A DNA stretch of 64,000 nt from a virus, in IMG/VR virus record IMGVR_UViG_3300027985_001623, positions 1 through 64,000 of that record; one strand, 5' to 3'. Each line of letters begins with the position of its first letter. Position 1 is the first letter of the stretch. The position numbers were made by a program, and so were the translations under genes. The notes under the pieces were generated by a model. The model saw nothing but the letters and a program-made list of their open reading frames with translations. It was not told the DNA's origin and searched no databases. This document shows, one piece after another, positions 5,882 through 55,752 of this stretch.

Positions 5882-7349
5882 TTCGAACTCTCCGCTGAAT
5901 ATCGCAGAAGTTTTCGCGTCGGATAAAATAGCCGTTCTCCCACAACGGTTGAAGTAACGACGCTGACTCCTCGACAGGTGAGGCGTTTTGTACAAGGCGT
6001 AACTCACCGGTCTTTTCGTCCGCGAGAACTGCTAGCCGCCCGGTAGCAGATTTCTTTGTCCCGCCATCCGTGACCGGATCTTTCTTGATTGAAACCGACG
6101 CTCCGTCAACTACGACTTCAGTCGCTTTGATAGCTGACATGAACGTATCTCTTGTTTGATACTGATACGTGTAGCTCCCAACACCGAACACCACGACATC
6201 GGAAGCGTACCCGAGCGTGCGAAGCTTGTGCGTAATGTCCTTAGCGCGATTAAGCGTAATTGAATCACCATAGATGGCGCCAACCCGCGAGTTTAGATGC
6301 TTGTACCCCTTCTCGTTGACCGTATGGCCAAACGTCTGGTCAAGCAACCGGATCACGCCGAGGTGCTCGGGAGAGTTCGGTTTAGCAGCCGGGTTCCCGC
6401 ACAAGATCTTCAACGGATCACCCGAATCGGGACGAATGACAAGCTTGCCCACACGTGCGTTGATCTTGTCGCGTAGCGCGGGCAAAATCTTCGTGCACAC
6501 ATCCCAAAGATTGAACGTGTCAGACACAATGGACAAAATCCCCGTCGGGTAGAGGTCAAGCAAGCGCTCGAACATAGCCCGCTCTCCTGCCATCGCGATG
6601 CCAGCGCACATGACGGAGTGTTCCGTTGCGGCGACTGAACCAAGAATTGCTCCGCCGCCGTAATACTGGTCAACGAATTCAAGGGCGCATAACGTGTCAG
6701 AGCCGTAAAACGACAAAAGATGCGCAGCTCCGGACAGCGCAGCACTCTCCGGGGAACTCATACCTCGACTTGAGAAATCGTGCGCTGCCCAATCCACGGT
6801 TGCGGGATCGGTGCCAGTCAAATCGGCCGCTTCAAGCAAAATTCGACGGTACTCCGCCGCGATGGTGGCAGACGTCGAGCCGAGCCAAGTCGCACACGAG
6901 AGCACTGTCTCAACATAGTTCGTCAGCCAGAAAAATTCTGGCGCCGTGTTCTCGATAGTCCACGATGGAACACCTATCGGGATACGCGTGCCCTCTGGCG
7001 CGCTACAAACCCGTAATGGGAGAAAACCAAGTCGGTGGAGCGCGCGAATGTGGTCGACTGGAATAGGTCGGCCTAGAATCGATGTAACGCGCTCATCGTA
7101 GAGCGCGCAAACACGGTCCTCGTCGGCATTAAAGAACCCTTGCCAAGCCTTATTTAGACACTTTTTCAAGGCAGCTTGAAGCCCAAAGTGTACGATCTTG
7201 TCAACGCCAAAAATGCGTGAGCCTCGATGCGTGTAATTGCTGTAAACACGCGTGATTTTTCCGGACAGTTCGTATTGCCGACGGTGGTCCAACTTATAGG
7301 CGTCGGTATTGAGTAATGGGGCTATGATGGTGTAGCTTTTATTGGACAT
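5874..7349 (-). CDS. nadV: nicotinamide phosphoribosyltransferase homologue (probable NARP1 Namat)
   Basis: TDAYKLDH, HDFSSRG, ATEHSVM, SDT, IRPDSGDP, GDSI, GVGS, KKSATG motifs. Confidence 0.93.
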   Translation of the reverse strand: MSNKSYTIIAPLLNTDAYKLDHRRQYELSGKITRVYSNYTHRGSRIFGVDKIVHFGLQAALKKCLNKAWQGFFNADEDRVCALYDERVTSILGRPIPVDHIRALHRLGFLPLRVCSAPEGTRIPIGVPSWTIENTAPEFFWLTNYVETVLSCATWLGSTSATIAAEYRRILLEAADLTGTDPATVDWAAHDFSSRGMSSPESAALSGAAHLLSFYGSDTLCALEFVDQYYGGGAILGSVAATEHSVMCAGIAMAGERAMFERLLDLYPTGILSIVSDTFNLWDVCTKILPALRDKINARVGKLVIRPDSGDPLKILCGNPAAKPNSPEHLGVIRLLDQTFGHTVNEKGYKHLNSRVGAIYGDSITLNRAKDITHKLRTLGYASDVVVFGVGSYTYQYQTRDTFMSAIKATEVVVDGASVSIKKDPVTDGGTKKSATGRLAVLADEKTGELRLVQNASPVEESASLLQPLWENGYFIRRENFCDIQRRVRNG

Positions 7350-51669: not shown

Positions 51670-52104
51670 TTAAAGCGGAAGCACCTGAGCGTTGCTTGAC
51701 GCCAAAGAGATCTTGAACGATCCAAAGTCAGAACGCGAGTTAAAGTTGAACGGTAGCGGGCCGAACTCCGCGTTGAGAATGACAATTCGCGCGCGCGCTC
51801 CCGAAGGAAACGACATCGTGCATTTGATGTTGATCTGCGTCCCCGGCTCGCGACGTCGCGCCTTATTGACGATGTCGAGCACCAACTTCAGAACGGCCGG
51901 ACTGTCGAAATGGAACTCGGCCTCACCCTCGATGCCATCAAAAATGGCGTCATACTCCTGCGAAGTCTGACCAAGGTAGCCTTCTTCAAGAATTTTGTTC
52001 TTGAAGGTAAAGCTAAACGACTTCACGTGGTTTAGCGCGTCCTGAGGCTGCCCGTTAACGACACTTAGAATTTCGACCTCTTGTCCCTTAATACGCTGTC
52101 CCAT
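51670..52104 (-). CDS. tail tube protein
   Basis: 144 aa beta-rich protein downstream of sheath. Confidence 0.78.
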   Translation of the reverse strand: MGQRIKGQEVEILSVVNGQPQDALNHVKSFSFTFKNKILEEGYLGQTSQEYDAIFDGIEGEAEFHFDSPAVLKLVLDIVNKARRREPGTQINIKCTMSFPSGARARIVILNAEFGPLPFNFNSRSDFGSFKISLASSNAQVLPL

Positions 52105-52127
52105 GGTGATTCTCGACTTCCTGGTGG

Positions 52128-52295
52128 TCGCGCTCCGGGGGCGATGTCAGCTTTCAAGCGTTTCTGGCAAAGGCAATGGCAGCGCGTACCAGAAAGCGAA
52201 GGTGTAAAAAATAGGGCCCCATTCAGGTTTCAGCTGAATGGGGCCCTATCCTCCGGAAGGAGTGCGACACCGTGACACGCCCCCGAGGCGAGTCC
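52128..52295 (-). ncRNA. structured RNA / attenuator-like leader upstream of tail tube
   Basis: 19-bp outer stem, nested hairpins, internal terminator; promoter immediately upstream. Confidence 0.6.
52206..52249 (-). terminator. intrinsic terminator-like hairpin
   Basis: Perfect 16-bp stem atagggccccattcag/ctgaatggggccctat followed by a T run. Confidence 0.75.
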
Positions 52296-52301
52296 ATCTA
52301 A

Positions 52302-52330
52302 AGACTACCGGCTTGACTCGGGAGCAGCAA
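52302..52330 (-). promoter_or_regulatory. sigma70-type promoter
   Basis: TTGCTG-N17-TAGTCT. Confidence 0.55.
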
Positions 52331-52337
52331 GTAAAAC

Positions 52338-52565
52338 CTATGAATCGCCGAGAACTCTTTTGATTTCAGCCCAAAGTGTCATCCGAATAATGTCGGCGAT
52401 CGCCAACGGAGTTCGACCGGGAGATCCCGCGTTTAAGTGGGCTTGAAGCTGCCGTAGCTTCGTATTGAGCGATTCATCGACACGCACCATGAGCTGGATA
52501 TTCAAACCGCCGGGGGCTTTGCGCGGGGCGCCGCCTTTCGTTCGAGCGTTCTCCGGATTTTGCAT
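52338..52565 (-). CDS. ribbon-helix-helix (Arc/CopG-like) protein
   Basis: QLMVRVDESLNTKL...IADIIRMTL; ATG 6 nt after TATTGT. Confidence 0.7.
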   Translation of the reverse strand: MQNPENARTKGGAPRKAPGGLNIQLMVRVDESLNTKLRQLQAHLNAGSPGRTPLAIADIIRMTLWAEIKRVLGDS

Positions 52566-52619
52566 AGCGCAACAATACAACTATACGAGCCGGGGGTTTG
52601 AAGTTTTTGTCAGAGTGCG

Positions 52620-52760
52620 CGATCCGCGACGCGAAGCGGACAGAGACCCGACGAAAAGCGCGAAGCGCTTTGAGAAGGGTCTCTGTAACTATCGCCTGAA
52701 ATGTACGCTATAAGAGACAAACTTTTGGTTAAAGCTCGATGCAGCCCTGCCGGCCCGCAT
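52620..52760 (-). ncRNA. candidate structured ncRNA
   Basis: Four hairpins including a 10-bp stem 52640-52649/52677-52686; TTGACA-N17-TATCTC upstream. Confidence 0.4.
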
Positions 52761-53038
52761 CTCGCTGAGATATCGTGAAAGTGATCTTTTGTCAACGTAA
52801 AAAATCAGACCTCGATTTAACCCGGCTGGGTATGCGTCTAGGCTGTTTTTTATGAGCGATCAACGCGCTACACAATGATCGCCCCGTACGCAAGCAAACT
52901 GAAAAACCGCTCCGGGATCTAACCTCATTGTCCGGCTAAAAATCTATTTCAGCGTACGTCTTAAAATTTCGAGCTTCTTCAAAAATGGAAGCGTTGCGAA
53001 CGGCGTTTTAGCTCTGTGTATCTCTTCGAATTCTGGAT

Positions 53039-53067
53039 AAAAAGAACCCCCGATAGGCTCGGGGGTC
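53039..53067 (-). terminator. intrinsic terminator
   Basis: gacccccga-gccta-tcgggggtt followed by ctttttat. Confidence 0.7.
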
Positions 53068-53195
53068 AGAGGCCTGCCGGTCGAGGCGAGGGCCGGCACC
53101 AGGTTCGTCGTTATAGCGGTAGAACCCCGCCCCACCCAGAGCGGCATCCGCTGGGATGCGTCGCGTACCGTTACGGCCAGGTGGATTGTCGTTGC
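53039..53195 (-). ncRNA. candidate structured ncRNA or sheath 3' UTR
   Basis: Chain of GC-rich hairpins ending in a terminator. Confidence 0.4.
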
Positions 53196-53271
53196 AAGCA
53201 ACGCATATTGGAAAAGTAGCATAGTGCTTCGGGCAAATCTACTTTTTGTGTATTTACCCGAAATCGAGCGT

Positions 53272-55752
53272 TTAGGCGGCTTCGAATGTTACGTTCTCGC
53301 CGATGTTGGTTTGAAGCGCGATGAAGTCCATAGACGCCATCGTTCGCACACTGAGGATAACGACGAATATCCCTTTGGCTTCGAGCGCGAGAGTGTTTCC
53401 CGACGTGTCATCGATTTGGTAGTCGATGATGCGTTGAGCCGGCGGATTGTTCTCGCTTTTGAGCTCCTGCATAAACGCTTCGATTTCGCCAATTGCGGAG
53501 TCTTTGTTACGTTCCACGAGCGGCAACTTGCAAAATTGCACGAGCCTTCGAGCGATTGAATCCTGTATGAAGTCCGCCATTCGCCGACGCGAGATGTTTT
53601 TTTCGCCGGAAATAAGGCTGGTCGTAATGCCCGATTGGACGATTGGACCCACGACACGGTCGATCCGCAGCGCGCACACCCCCCGATTTCTGAGCGTGAT
53701 GTAATCGTCCTTCTCTAAGTTCTGCACTCCAGTTTGGAGCCCCAAAACACTCGCCAGAAGTTCTGGAACGGGGGCCGCAGCCTGGCCGATATTCCGCTCT
53801 GGAGCGATGTTCGACATCAACGATGCAGTCCACGTGCTGAACGCGATATCGAGGACGCCATCAACCGTGGTCAGCCCGTTCGCGAGCTTGATCCGCGTGC
53901 CAACAGCTTCGGGAATGTAAGTTCGGGCCCCGGGCCACGAGTAGACCACCCGCTCGGCTCGATATGCTCCGACGCCAGGCGACGTCGCGCCGACCACCGT
54001 GTCTAGTGAGGTCGTGGTCAACTCAGGGCTCAAAATCGCGATACGGCCGAGCCCATCGCTACTCGCTGAAAGTGCATTTGACCGTAACGCCGATCGAATG
54101 TTGGCACTCGTTCGTGCGGAGACGATTAGGTTGATTTCCGACACGGGTGTGGCATCGGAAATCATTGCGGCCAGGGCTGTCGTGTAGGCGGCATCGATTA
54201 GCGCCGCATTTGGGGCATTTAGCCCCTGAAGCGCGGCCACAAATGCCATGGCCGTGATTGGATGCAGGCGCCCCGCGAGACCGGACAGCGGATCGGCCGT
54301 GTCCCCGGTGAGGGCGGGAGGTTGGCTGATCGGCGCCACGAGCTCCCCTAGCGGGTAAACGCCGTCAACGACGCCGCCAGTAGCGTTTGTCACGGGTCGG
54401 ACAGGGGTGGAGAACCCTCCGGGGTCATTCTGGTCGTAGCCGCCAGCTCCCGTGGCGCCAAGCACAACAACCGGCGCCGAGTCGGCATCGGAGCTGACGT
54501 GCACGCGCCATGGAACGTTCGCCGCAGCCGTCCAGGCGAAGTTGGCTCCATCGAGACGTTCGACAGTTAGGTTCGTCCCCGAAACCGCGTCCGTTGCAAC
54601 TCGGTAAGTTCCGCCGCCAGTTGGCGCAATTGCTCCGAGGTTGTCGTAGCCGATGACAATGACGTCACCCTTCTTGAGGCCCACATCGCCGTCATCTCGT
54701 GTGATGGCTGCCCAATCGATCCCGTCGACAAACCCTTGGTCGTATACGGGGGCTGTAGTGTAGATCGTGGTGAGTCGCGCGCGAATGTAGAAAGCTGGAA
54801 CTGCATTGATTGTGTTCTCGGCCCAATCGCTTGGCGCCGAGAACTCGATCGTTTGCCCTGCACTAACGGCGGCTGTGAACCCAACCGTTCCATCGGTGAC
54901 AGTTAGCGCGGCCCAAGCCGAGCCGTTCCAATATTCCCAAGTGACCACGCCTCCAACGCCTTGCGTTCCGCCTGTGTTGTTCAGCGTGATTTTGGTGAAT
55001 TGCTCTGCCATGCCGAACGCGACAAAGTCGGCGACGGTGCCCAACGCGTCCCAAGGAGTGAAATTAGCTACGGTCTCGTCGTTAAATTCGGTGGTTTGGT
55101 CGACAAACACCGTCCCCCCTGTGTTCGCTTGCCAAACTTGCAGGGCAGCCGACGCGGAGACAAACACTTGCGTTGCCGCCGATGCTCCGCCGAGTAGCTG
55201 CCCCGCGAGACCGGTGGCGAGGGTATCGAACGCAGTGAAGTTGATGCGCTTTGCGATCAGCACACGACCACCGGTGCTGTTCCGGAACTCCCGCCCGGGG
55301 GTGATCGTGGCCCCTTGGACCGGAACGACTGGGAGGGCATCTTCTTGTGAAGAGCACAACGGTAGCTCTCGGAAAAAACGGGCTCCGACATTCGATGTAA
55401 GGTTGACCGGCGCGATAATTAGACGGCTGAATCGCTTGTTTCGAATCGCTGCGAAACCGTTTCCACCTGCGCGTCCGAAGTCCCCGAGAGTCGGGTCAAA
55501 GGAGCCAACCTTGTTGAGCAGGTCTTGGCTGGTAGTGACCGCGACCGGCCGCACAAACGTCGTGACGTTGCCGCTTCCGTCCACGTCCGTGGCGTAAGAC
55601 ATGTCGGGGAATTCACCAACCAACCCGACGACGCCCGTACTGACTCCTTCGATGGAGCCGGTAGGGGCGAGATCGATGATGTTGACGCCCTCGATTTGTG
55701 AAAGAACTTCAGTTCCCGGAAAGTATGAAAATCGTCGGATGAATCCTGGCAT
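53272..55752 (-). CDS. contractile tail sheath protein with inserted domains
   Basis: IEGVSTGVVGLVGEF N-terminus; C-terminal GITT...ISRRRMADFI...MDFIAL. Confidence 0.9.
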   Translation of the reverse strand: MPGFIRRFSYFPGTEVLSQIEGVNIIDLAPTGSIEGVSTGVVGLVGEFPDMSYATDVDGSGNVTTFVRPVAVTTSQDLLNKVGSFDPTLGDFGRAGGNGFAAIRNKRFSRLIIAPVNLTSNVGARFFRELPLCSSQEDALPVVPVQGATITPGREFRNSTGGRVLIAKRINFTAFDTLATGLAGQLLGGASAATQVFVSASAALQVWQANTGGTVFVDQTTEFNDETVANFTPWDALGTVADFVAFGMAEQFTKITLNNTGGTQGVGGVVTWEYWNGSAWAALTVTDGTVGFTAAVSAGQTIEFSAPSDWAENTINAVPAFYIRARLTTIYTTAPVYDQGFVDGIDWAAITRDDGDVGLKKGDVIVIGYDNLGAIAPTGGGTYRVATDAVSGTNLTVERLDGANFAWTAAANVPWRVHVSSDADSAPVVVLGATGAGGYDQNDPGGFSTPVRPVTNATGGVVDGVYPLGELVAPISQPPALTGDTADPLSGLAGRLHPITAMAFVAALQGLNAPNAALIDAAYTTALAAMISDATPVSEINLIVSARTSANIRSALRSNALSASSDGLGRIAILSPELTTTSLDTVVGATSPGVGAYRAERVVYSWPGARTYIPEAVGTRIKLANGLTTVDGVLDIAFSTWTASLMSNIAPERNIGQAAAPVPELLASVLGLQTGVQNLEKDDYITLRNRGVCALRIDRVVGPIVQSGITTSLISGEKNISRRRMADFIQDSIARRLVQFCKLPLVERNKDSAIGEIEAFMQELKSENNPPAQRIIDYQIDDTSGNTLALEAKGIFVVILSVRTMASMDFIALQTNIGENVTFEAA

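Follow-up and report, generated by a model that had tools for sequence, protein, structure and literature searches.

Between the tail sheath gene and the putative tail tube gene of an uncultured myophage lies a spacer of 1167 nucleotides (nt; positions 52105–53271) that consists of two parts, as follows. The part next to the tube gene, at 52203–52330, is an ancestral promoter–RNA–terminator unit common to the phage family, with a predicted promoter. The part next to the sheath gene, at 52331–53271 (~0.93 kb), is a lineage-specific cargo that includes a gene for a 75-residue ribbon-helix-helix (RHH) protein. On balance, we think it probable that the spacer is to be read as a leader or attenuator beside a moron-like regulator gene. 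The DNA, here called the window, comprises positions 1–64,000 of an IMG/VR virus record (IMGVR_UViG_3300027985_001623) that is 98.5 kb long, has direct terminal repeats and comes from a hydrothermal-vent metagenome assembly. In an open reading frame (ORF) listing, the minus strand carries all long ORFs of the window, and the window features described below are on that strand.

An earlier note on this DNA had described the spacer as a self-contained inserted module of three structured RNAs and an RHH gene. The spacer and its listed features are real: the 1167 nt, two terminators, promoter-like strings, the RHH gene and ORF-poor segments are all present. The insertion of the whole is not borne out, since the unit beside the tube gene is ancestral (44 of 48 loci, once per genome) and only the ~0.93 kb upstream is inserted. 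As for the three RNAs, one (52203–52295) has covariation and its own predicted promoter and terminator, and the other two have neither homologues nor more than modest folding z-scores.

The Conserved RNA Unit

An alignment of 22 sheath homologues led to 48 related IMG/VR loci, 44 of which hold both the sheath and the tube gene. The unit was first read off their aligned short spacers as GCCGCAC, a small hairpin, (G)ATAGGGC and a strong hairpin with a T-run; ATAGGG is found in 43 of the 44 spacers. Across the family, the order is a σ70-like promoter, GCCGCAC, hairpin P1, GAUA, the GC-rich hairpin P2 and a U-run. The RNA of the window, recognized by covariation, RNAalifold and a covariance model called R1, is ~92 nt long (52203–52295). 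It contains GUCGCAC at 52268–52262, P1 (CUCC/GGAG) at 52262–52251, GAUA at 52250–52247, the P2 terminator hairpin at 52249–52211 and the U-run at 52210–52206. The window's P2 arms match perfectly over 16 nt around a loop of 7 nt, and TTTTT follows; the family consensus is GGGC...GCC plus TTTT. Although the terminator scan did not list this hairpin, it is unambiguous. The terminator at 52206–52249 and the promoter-like string TTGCTG-N17-TAGTCT that had been pointed out earlier both belong to this unit.

Covariation among the aligned sequences supports both P1 and P2 as predicted hairpins. Thirteen pairs were assessed on an unfitted MAFFT alignment (A4) of 42 distinct copies. Paired cells make up 88%, versus 71% in shuffles and at most 57% in slid controls. 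Double-sided changes number 97, versus 32.7 ± 4.8 in shuffles, none of 500 of which reach 97, and the covariation score is 0.49 versus 0.20. On whole short spacers, RNAalifold recovers P1 and P2 only, plus two A's of AUA paired with the U-run. P1 has a fixed polarity, with a C-rich 5′ side and a G-rich 3′ side (C-G pairs 38, 24 and 27 versus G-C pairs 0, 0 and 5). Compared with dinucleotide shuffles, the control used for all folds reported here, the segment 52105–52337 folds with a z-score of −5.8. A long-range helix that would enclose the window's terminator (52125–52143 with 52278–296) was rejected, as RNAalifold gave no consensus for it in the relatives.

Model R1 matches the window once, at 52203–52277 (E 6.6e-7). 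At E ≤ 1e-6, there is one match per genome in 13 of 13 phage genomes, always in the sheath–tube spacer, and 44 of the 48 related loci are matched. Three of the other four loci end before the spacer is complete, and the fourth is L039, whose 56-nt spacer (6972–7027) holds a plain GC-rich hairpin. Of the relatives, L039 alone lacks the ATAGGG unit, and its sheath is only 41% identical; its spacer may be of a form that predates the acquisition of the unit, or the unit may have been lost from it. In one spacer of L014 (6575–6730), and in L016, which has the identical sequence, two GAGAGGATAGGGC-hairpin-TTT modules stand in tandem, a local duplication of the unit's terminator part.

The unit does not correspond to a described RNA family in the sources searched. 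The Rfam covariance models, a check that the earlier note had suggested, gave no gathering-level match in the window spacer or in 12 relatives' loci. Two matches in the window spacer are below threshold, the better being anti-hemB in 53068–53271 (21.5 bits versus a cut-off of 49.5). A literature search found no report of a sheath–tube intergenic RNA. Scanning IMG/VR for the pattern CCGCAC-N8–26-GATAGGGC gave at least 119 stretches, and among the matches listed none of 80 fits the RNA model; this pattern is too unspecific to survey the RNA.

Predicted Transcription of the Unit

The σ70-like promoter TTGCTG-N17-TAGTCT (52302–52330) stands at a position shared with the relatives. A box of the form TTGnnn-N16–18-[TC]AnnnT, typically TTGACG-N17-TAGnnT, ends 32–64 nt upstream of ATAGGG in 36 of the 42 distinct copies, versus 2.1 ± 1.3 in shuffles and none on the opposite strand. 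The box keeps beside the RNA wherever cargo inserts. In the shortest spacers its −35 lies within the last sheath codons, and in the window the unit starts 8 nt past the RHH stop codon. The window's box predicts a start near 52295, which would give an RNA of ~92 nt ending at the U-run at 52210–52206.

In unexpanded relatives, P2 is followed within ~10–40 nt by the tube start or its ribosome-binding site (RBS). Because this interval leaves no room for another promoter, the tube-operon transcripts must read through P2, and it is for this reason that we read the unit as a leader or attenuator. We propose the following sequence of events. The unit is kept once per genome, upstream of the tube gene, in nearly every member of this uncultured family. 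Its promoter would start a short RNA that ends at the P2 intrinsic terminator, and all transcripts reaching the tube, tape-measure and baseplate genes would have to read through P2. The unit would thus be a promoter-proximal attenuator or leader whose default product is an RNA of ~80–110 nt, and read-through of P2, leaky or helped by a factor, would set tail-gene expression. The cargo, which comprises an upstream intrinsic terminator (T1), ~450 nt of non-coding DNA and the RHH gene, lies in an insertion hotspot. The RHH gene would be moron-like, an autonomous accessory regulator that T1 shields from late transcription and whose own transcript ends at P2.

This scheme resembles the late control of phage λ, in which the PR′ promoter, the 6S RNA and the tR′ terminator give a short terminated RNA by default, subject to antitermination by Q. 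As in PR′-6S-tR′, a strong intrinsic terminator comes within ~100 nt of a predicted promoter of constitutive type, and all late or structural transcription further downstream would have to pass it. The differences are several. Q is present in λ, whereas no Q homologue was found in this phage; the λ unit precedes all late genes, whereas the unit described here is placed between the sheath and tube genes, within the structural module. The RNA here has conserved sequence and covarying hairpins that are not needed by λ Q, and its read-through is one that we infer. The put RNA of HK022 and EAR are likewise short multi-hairpin RNAs just downstream of promoters and before long operons. The last hairpin of the phage unit, however, is a terminator, which is not so in put or EAR.

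The Spacer as an Insertion Slot in Related Phages

That sheath and tube genes adjoin each other, the premise of the earlier note, fails in this family: the spacers of the 44 loci measure 56–4587 nt (median ~220) and often hold homing endonuclease or structural genes. In 9 loci the cargo follows the motif, on the tube side; in others, among them the window, it precedes the motif, on the sheath side. The distance from ATAGGG to the tube start is usually 52–90 nt; it is 580–845 nt in those 9 loci because the cargo sits between the two. The DNA that flanks the RNA unit is, on both sides, an insertion hotspot.

HNH endonuclease genes occupy the spacer in nine loci. Pfam HNH matches are found in L045, L012 and L018, where the genes are on the same strand. 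Matches to phrog_374 (E 1e-65 to 1e-70) identify the genes of L003 (7580–8296), L030 (7241–7933), L035 (8026–8580) and L042 (8836–9480), all on the minus strand, and the assignment of L021 and L023 is by a shared N-terminal motif only. In these last six relatives, an HNH gene of ~220 codons lies antisense between the RNA unit and the tube gene. Free-standing homing endonucleases are known between conserved genes of other phages, e.g., seg and mob of the T4-like phages. The relatives' HNH genes likewise lie between two conserved genes and adjoin a sequence that does not vary, the RNA unit, which may be their homing target. The window differs in that its spacer contains neither an endonuclease nor a recognizable remnant of one.

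Other long spacers are filled by a tail-fibre-like family of 187–1065 residues whose proteins start MARTxIxN...LPxPY. About ten relatives have such genes inserted after the sheath gene and ahead of the RNA unit. They include L049:6991–7554, L032:7046–7768, L035:7011–7895, L023:7052–8089, L045:6941–8056, L019:4412–6349, L050:7032–9266 and L025:7713–10910. One of the proteins matches the tail-fibre family phrog_892 and one has a BNR_2 domain; the family may serve as an accessory fibre or decorate the tail.

The Cargo and Its Regulator Gene

Neither in DNA nor in protein sequence does the cargo of the window resemble the spacers of the relatives, and blastn gave no match for the cargo among plasmids or for the region among GenBank phages. 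Conversely, tblastn of the relatives' cargo ORFs against the window spacer gave nothing above noise (the best E was 0.001, for a target of 1.2 kb). Pfam and PHROGs gave no match for the spacer ORFs, no HNH, GIY-YIG or LAGLIDADG endonuclease or recognizable remnant was found in the spacer, and a search for transfer and transfer-messenger RNAs (tRNA and tmRNA) found none.

Reading from the sheath gene, the cargo begins with segment A (53068–53271), an ORF-poor stretch of ~200 nt after the sheath stop codon. It behaves as a 3′ untranslated region, and its status as a separate RNA is unsupported. Together with T1 it folds with a z-score of −3.05 (53030–53271). T1 (53037–53067) was found by the terminator scan and has a 9-bp stem with 6 GC pairs, a 5-nt loop and a CTTTTTAT tail. 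Two co-oriented terminators, T1 and P2, thus part the sheath from the tube gene, as had been claimed. Segment B (52586–53036, ~450 nt) contains TTGACA at 52795–52790 and a hairpin with 22-nt arms at 52640–52686; its ORFs score as non-coding by codon log-odds. The fold of 52566–53036 has a z-score of −2.25, and 4 of 100 shuffles fold as well. An ORF of 92 codons that crosses T1 was set aside as unconvincing (codon log-odds 0.12, Atlas predicted local distance difference test (pLDDT) score 0.43, no matches). Neither segment has a credible ORF or a homologue among relatives' spacers, GenBank phages or plasmids. The proposal that the spacers of related phages be examined for covariation was fruitful for the P1/P2 unit and not for segments A and B, which have no homologues to align.

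The 75-codon ORF at 52338–52565 is a real gene. Its codon log-odds value of 0.24 compares with 0.28 ± 0.10 for true genes and −0.10 ± 0.15 for spurious ORFs, so that its codon usage is like that of the phage's own genes. Exhaustive HMMER searching found six small homologues (E 3e-5 to 8e-4), and a profile search extended these to at least 165 proteins of 56–132 residues that have in common an N-terminal arm motif, KGGAPRKAPGGLN, a strand motif, LxVRxD, and two helices. A distant member, P0242, carries PF01402, and in two neighbouring Atlas clusters RHH_1 is found in 12% and 67% of the members. With an alignment of 53 sequences, AlphaFold2 gave a model with a pLDDT of 85, in which residues 20–30 are extended and residues 31–46 and 56–72 are helical; from the single sequence the model was poor (pLDDT 66). 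In a structural search independent of Foldseek, the top 48 of the 50 matches listed were nearly all RHH proteins (Z 3.5–6.2), among them TraM-N, PutA52, NikR, AmrZ, Arc, omega and ParG, with root-mean-square deviations of 1.1–2.8 Å over 43–54 residues for the best. Foldseek found nothing significant for the model in the PDB. The homologues, the model and the codon usage agree with the earlier assignment of an RHH regulator: the protein is predicted to have the ribbon-helix-helix fold, in a new, uncharacterised family without a Pfam model.

The 20 nt before the gene (52566–52585) are its likely promoter and operator. They contain tandem 8-mers, TATAGTTG and TATTGTTG, and a −10-like hexamer, TATTGT (52577–52572), that ends 6 nt before the ATG. 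The homologue loci L053, L055 and L058 are laid out alike: each lacks a Shine-Dalgarno sequence and has its −10-like hexamer 6 nt ahead of the ATG. Because the window's gene too lacks a Shine-Dalgarno sequence and has the hexamer so close to its start codon, its messenger RNA (mRNA) is probably leaderless. We suggest that the RHH protein is probably an autorepressor that acts on the gene's promoter by way of the tandem TATAGTTG/TATTGTTG repeats. Perfect or near-perfect palindromes occur upstream of other genes of the family, at 2300–2360 of L056 (CATACCGCTAGCGGTATG) and 260–316 of L058 (CGCTAGCG, GTATGCAAGCATAC); they overlap the putative promoter and are likely operators. Within the window, a 13-nt inverted repeat (52501–52513 with 52590–52602, 92% complementary, with a loop of 76 nt) could enclose the RHH start codon and may be a translational control structure or a product of chance.

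No copy of the RHH gene occurs in 21 related phage records or at any of the 48 sheath loci, and tblastn of the protein against cultured phages gave no match. Searches of other collections found the family at one locus of IMG/VR and at four short loci of metagenomes; the GTDB representative genomes yielded none. Two large proteins also match the RHH query, P0122 (3622 residues) in three stretches (E 8.5e-36) and P0123 (487 residues) in six (E 1.2e-7); they could contain the RHH domain in tandem repeats, or their gene calls could be read-throughs. As to a toxin partner, no ORF lies between the RHH gene and the conserved promoter, and the contexts of five homologues are heterogeneous and share no partner. 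Nothing in the spacer points to the host silencing, decoys or antitoxin mimicry that had been suggested for it, there being no partner toxin ORF and no repeats, and the claims of anti-defence and host-silencing functions are unsupported.

The cargo invites comparison with the morons that Hendrix and colleagues described in lambdoid and other phages, which are autonomous promoter–gene–terminator insertions between conserved late genes. Here too, an extra gene that is absent from relatives lies between two conserved structural genes, with terminators on both sides and an apparent promoter of its own. The typical moron product is a host-fitness factor, whereas the product here is a predicted DNA-binding regulator; moreover, its promoter is a putative one, a −10-like box that fails the consensus scan, and ~650 nt of non-coding DNA accompany the gene. 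The protein itself shares the predicted strand-helix-helix topology of the RHH repressors (PF01402; Arc, Mnt, CopG, omega, ParG and the N-domains of NikR and TraM). It is also like them in its small size, its basic N-terminal arm and the tandem repeats at its own promoter, and it may dimerise and bind DNA as they do. It differs in the KGGAPRKAPGGLN motif, which is specific to its own family, in having no Pfam match and in having no toxin, partition or transfer gene beside it.

Alternative Explanations

Several observations weigh against reading the unit as a regulated leader with an RHH regulator gene beside it. The strings TTGACA, TTGCTG-N17-TAGTCT and TATTGT that the earlier note listed are present, but a consensus promoter scan found 0 sites versus 1.0 expected, and all the window's promoter boxes fail it. 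The Q-type antiterminator families PF03589 and PF06530 gave no match in the 98.5-kb genome, and neither did PF06323, although its control also matched nowhere; regulated read-through is thus left without a candidate factor. AUA may merely pair with the U-run, as in the RNAalifold consensus, and the unit could then be no more than an ordinary terminator with a promoter ahead of it by chance. The window's copy scores near the bottom of the family with R1 (32 bits), no RNA run is listed that contains this DNA, and the closest sheath relatives, P0002–P0010 (62–69% identity), which a metagenome scan with the sheath protein did not find, are outside the spacer comparison. For the RHH protein, Pfam (E ≤ 1) gave no match to it or its six homologues, PHROGs were silent too, the structural Z-scores of the model are middling, and the promoter/operator layout is drawn from five loci only.

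Parts of the evidence would suit a free-standing gene for a trans-acting small RNA, with GCCGCAC as its seed, with P1, AUA and the U-tailed terminator as a chaperone-binding module, with host or phage mRNAs as its targets and with read-through to the tube gene as an incidental matter. Promoter and terminator stay linked whatever inserts on either side, the predicted start in the shortest forms is only a few nt before GCCGCAC, there is a single copy per genome, and inserts of 600–800 nt between unit and tube in 9 relatives imply that adjacency to the tube RBS is not required. Yet GTGCGGC, the complement of the seed, occurs at chance frequency in five complete phage genomes, and the unit is always in the path of tail-gene transcription, which would be needless for a purely trans-acting RNA. 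We regard this explanation as a possible one, though unlikely. Clearly less probable is an intercistronic processing or stability element, in which the single-stranded GAUA would be cleaved and the hairpins would protect the 3′ end of the sheath mRNA and the 5′ end of the tube mRNA, the promoter box being incidental or weak. Such an element would account for the invariant AUAGGG between two covarying hairpins, for the position between two very highly expressed genes and for the tube RBS directly after P2 in unexpanded relatives. It would leave the positionally conserved TTGACG-N17-TAGnnT box without explanation, however; AUA can simply pair with the U-run, and P2 with its U-run is a canonical terminator.

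Two further explanations concern the inserted DNA. The cargo might be a decayed mobile element, such as a homing-endonuclease cassette, with the RHH gene as its sole surviving ORF and segments A and B as dead coding DNA. HNH genes do occupy the same slot in nine relatives, ~650 nt of the cargo are without an ORF, and the codon score of the 92-codon ORF is intermediate. Against this, comparison with the relatives' cargo ORFs gave noise, Pfam and PHROGs are silent on the spacer ORFs, and no RHH gene accompanies the HNH cassettes of the relatives (21 records), so that we hold such an origin to be improbable, if a little less so than the processing element. The least probable explanation is the one with which the analysis began, a single self-contained module, inserted as the entire 1.17 kb, in which an RHH regulator accompanies three structured RNAs that act in trans. 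All the ORF-poor segments do beat their shuffles, the RHH gene is there and Rfam matches none of the segments. The best-folding segment, however, is ancestral to the family and outside the insertion, segments A and B are without a homologue anywhere searched and owe their modest z-scores partly to T1, and the spacer has no ToxI- or CRISPR-type repeats, no tRNA or tmRNA and no toxin-like partner ORF. A leader or attenuator next to a moron-like regulator gene remains the reading that we favour.

Flanking Genes

The upstream flank of the slot is the tail sheath gene (53272–55752), an ORF of 826 codons that matches the tail sheath family phrog_23 (E 1.7e-8); Pfam gave a weak match only, to the sheath C-terminal domain. 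Its product has 208 homologues, the nearest being 69% identical. These fall into two size classes, of ~820–835 and ~680–700 residues, and the shorter class aligns in one piece over 58% of the query only, which suggests that the window's sheath carries an extra domain. Searches of IMG/VR and JGI metagenomes with the single sheath protein found nothing, whereas the sheath alignment did retrieve loci; tblastn against cultured phages found none that encodes a detectable relative.

The downstream flank (51670–52104) is an ORF of 144 codons that adjoins the sheath gene in the 44 loci and is putatively the tail tube gene. This assignment is based on its position and on phrog_365, ‘tail protein’, to which 4 of 27 tube orthologues show a weak match. 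The tube protein had no match in PDB and Pfam sequence searches, nor did the tube alignment among PDB sequences. Two small ORFs and then a tape-measure-like ORF of 712 codons lie 3′ of it. Between the P2 terminator and the tube start, the window has a leader (52105–52202) in which sequence and fold indicate an extra hairpin and an RBS, AGGAAG, at 52122–52117. This leader exceeds that of most relatives, with 144 nt from ATAGGG to the tube start versus 52–90 nt in those that are unexpanded.

Conclusions

It is tempting to go further and propose that a large family of uncultured myophages has a dedicated riboregulator in the ~90-nt RNA, which would time the expression of the tube, tape-measure and baseplate genes. 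It might do so as a switch in cis that is overridden by a phage factor recognizing the invariant single-stranded nucleotides, or as a small RNA acting in trans, and the inserted RHH protein might have been recruited to control the switch. We offer this extension tentatively and consider it doubtful.

For the reading of uncultured phage genomes, the useful pattern is that a long “intergenic” gap in a tail operon can turn out to be a slot in which insertions recur, next to a cis element that is conserved. The RHH family, with at least 165 members, no Pfam model and apparently leaderless genes, adds a small group of regulators that are carried by mobile elements. The RNA unit is a new candidate RNA family without an Rfam entry; more than 40 phage genomes supply good covariation for it, and its place before essential tail genes is fixed. 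If the unit gates read-through, it would offer a handle on how this phage family sets the expression of its tail genes.

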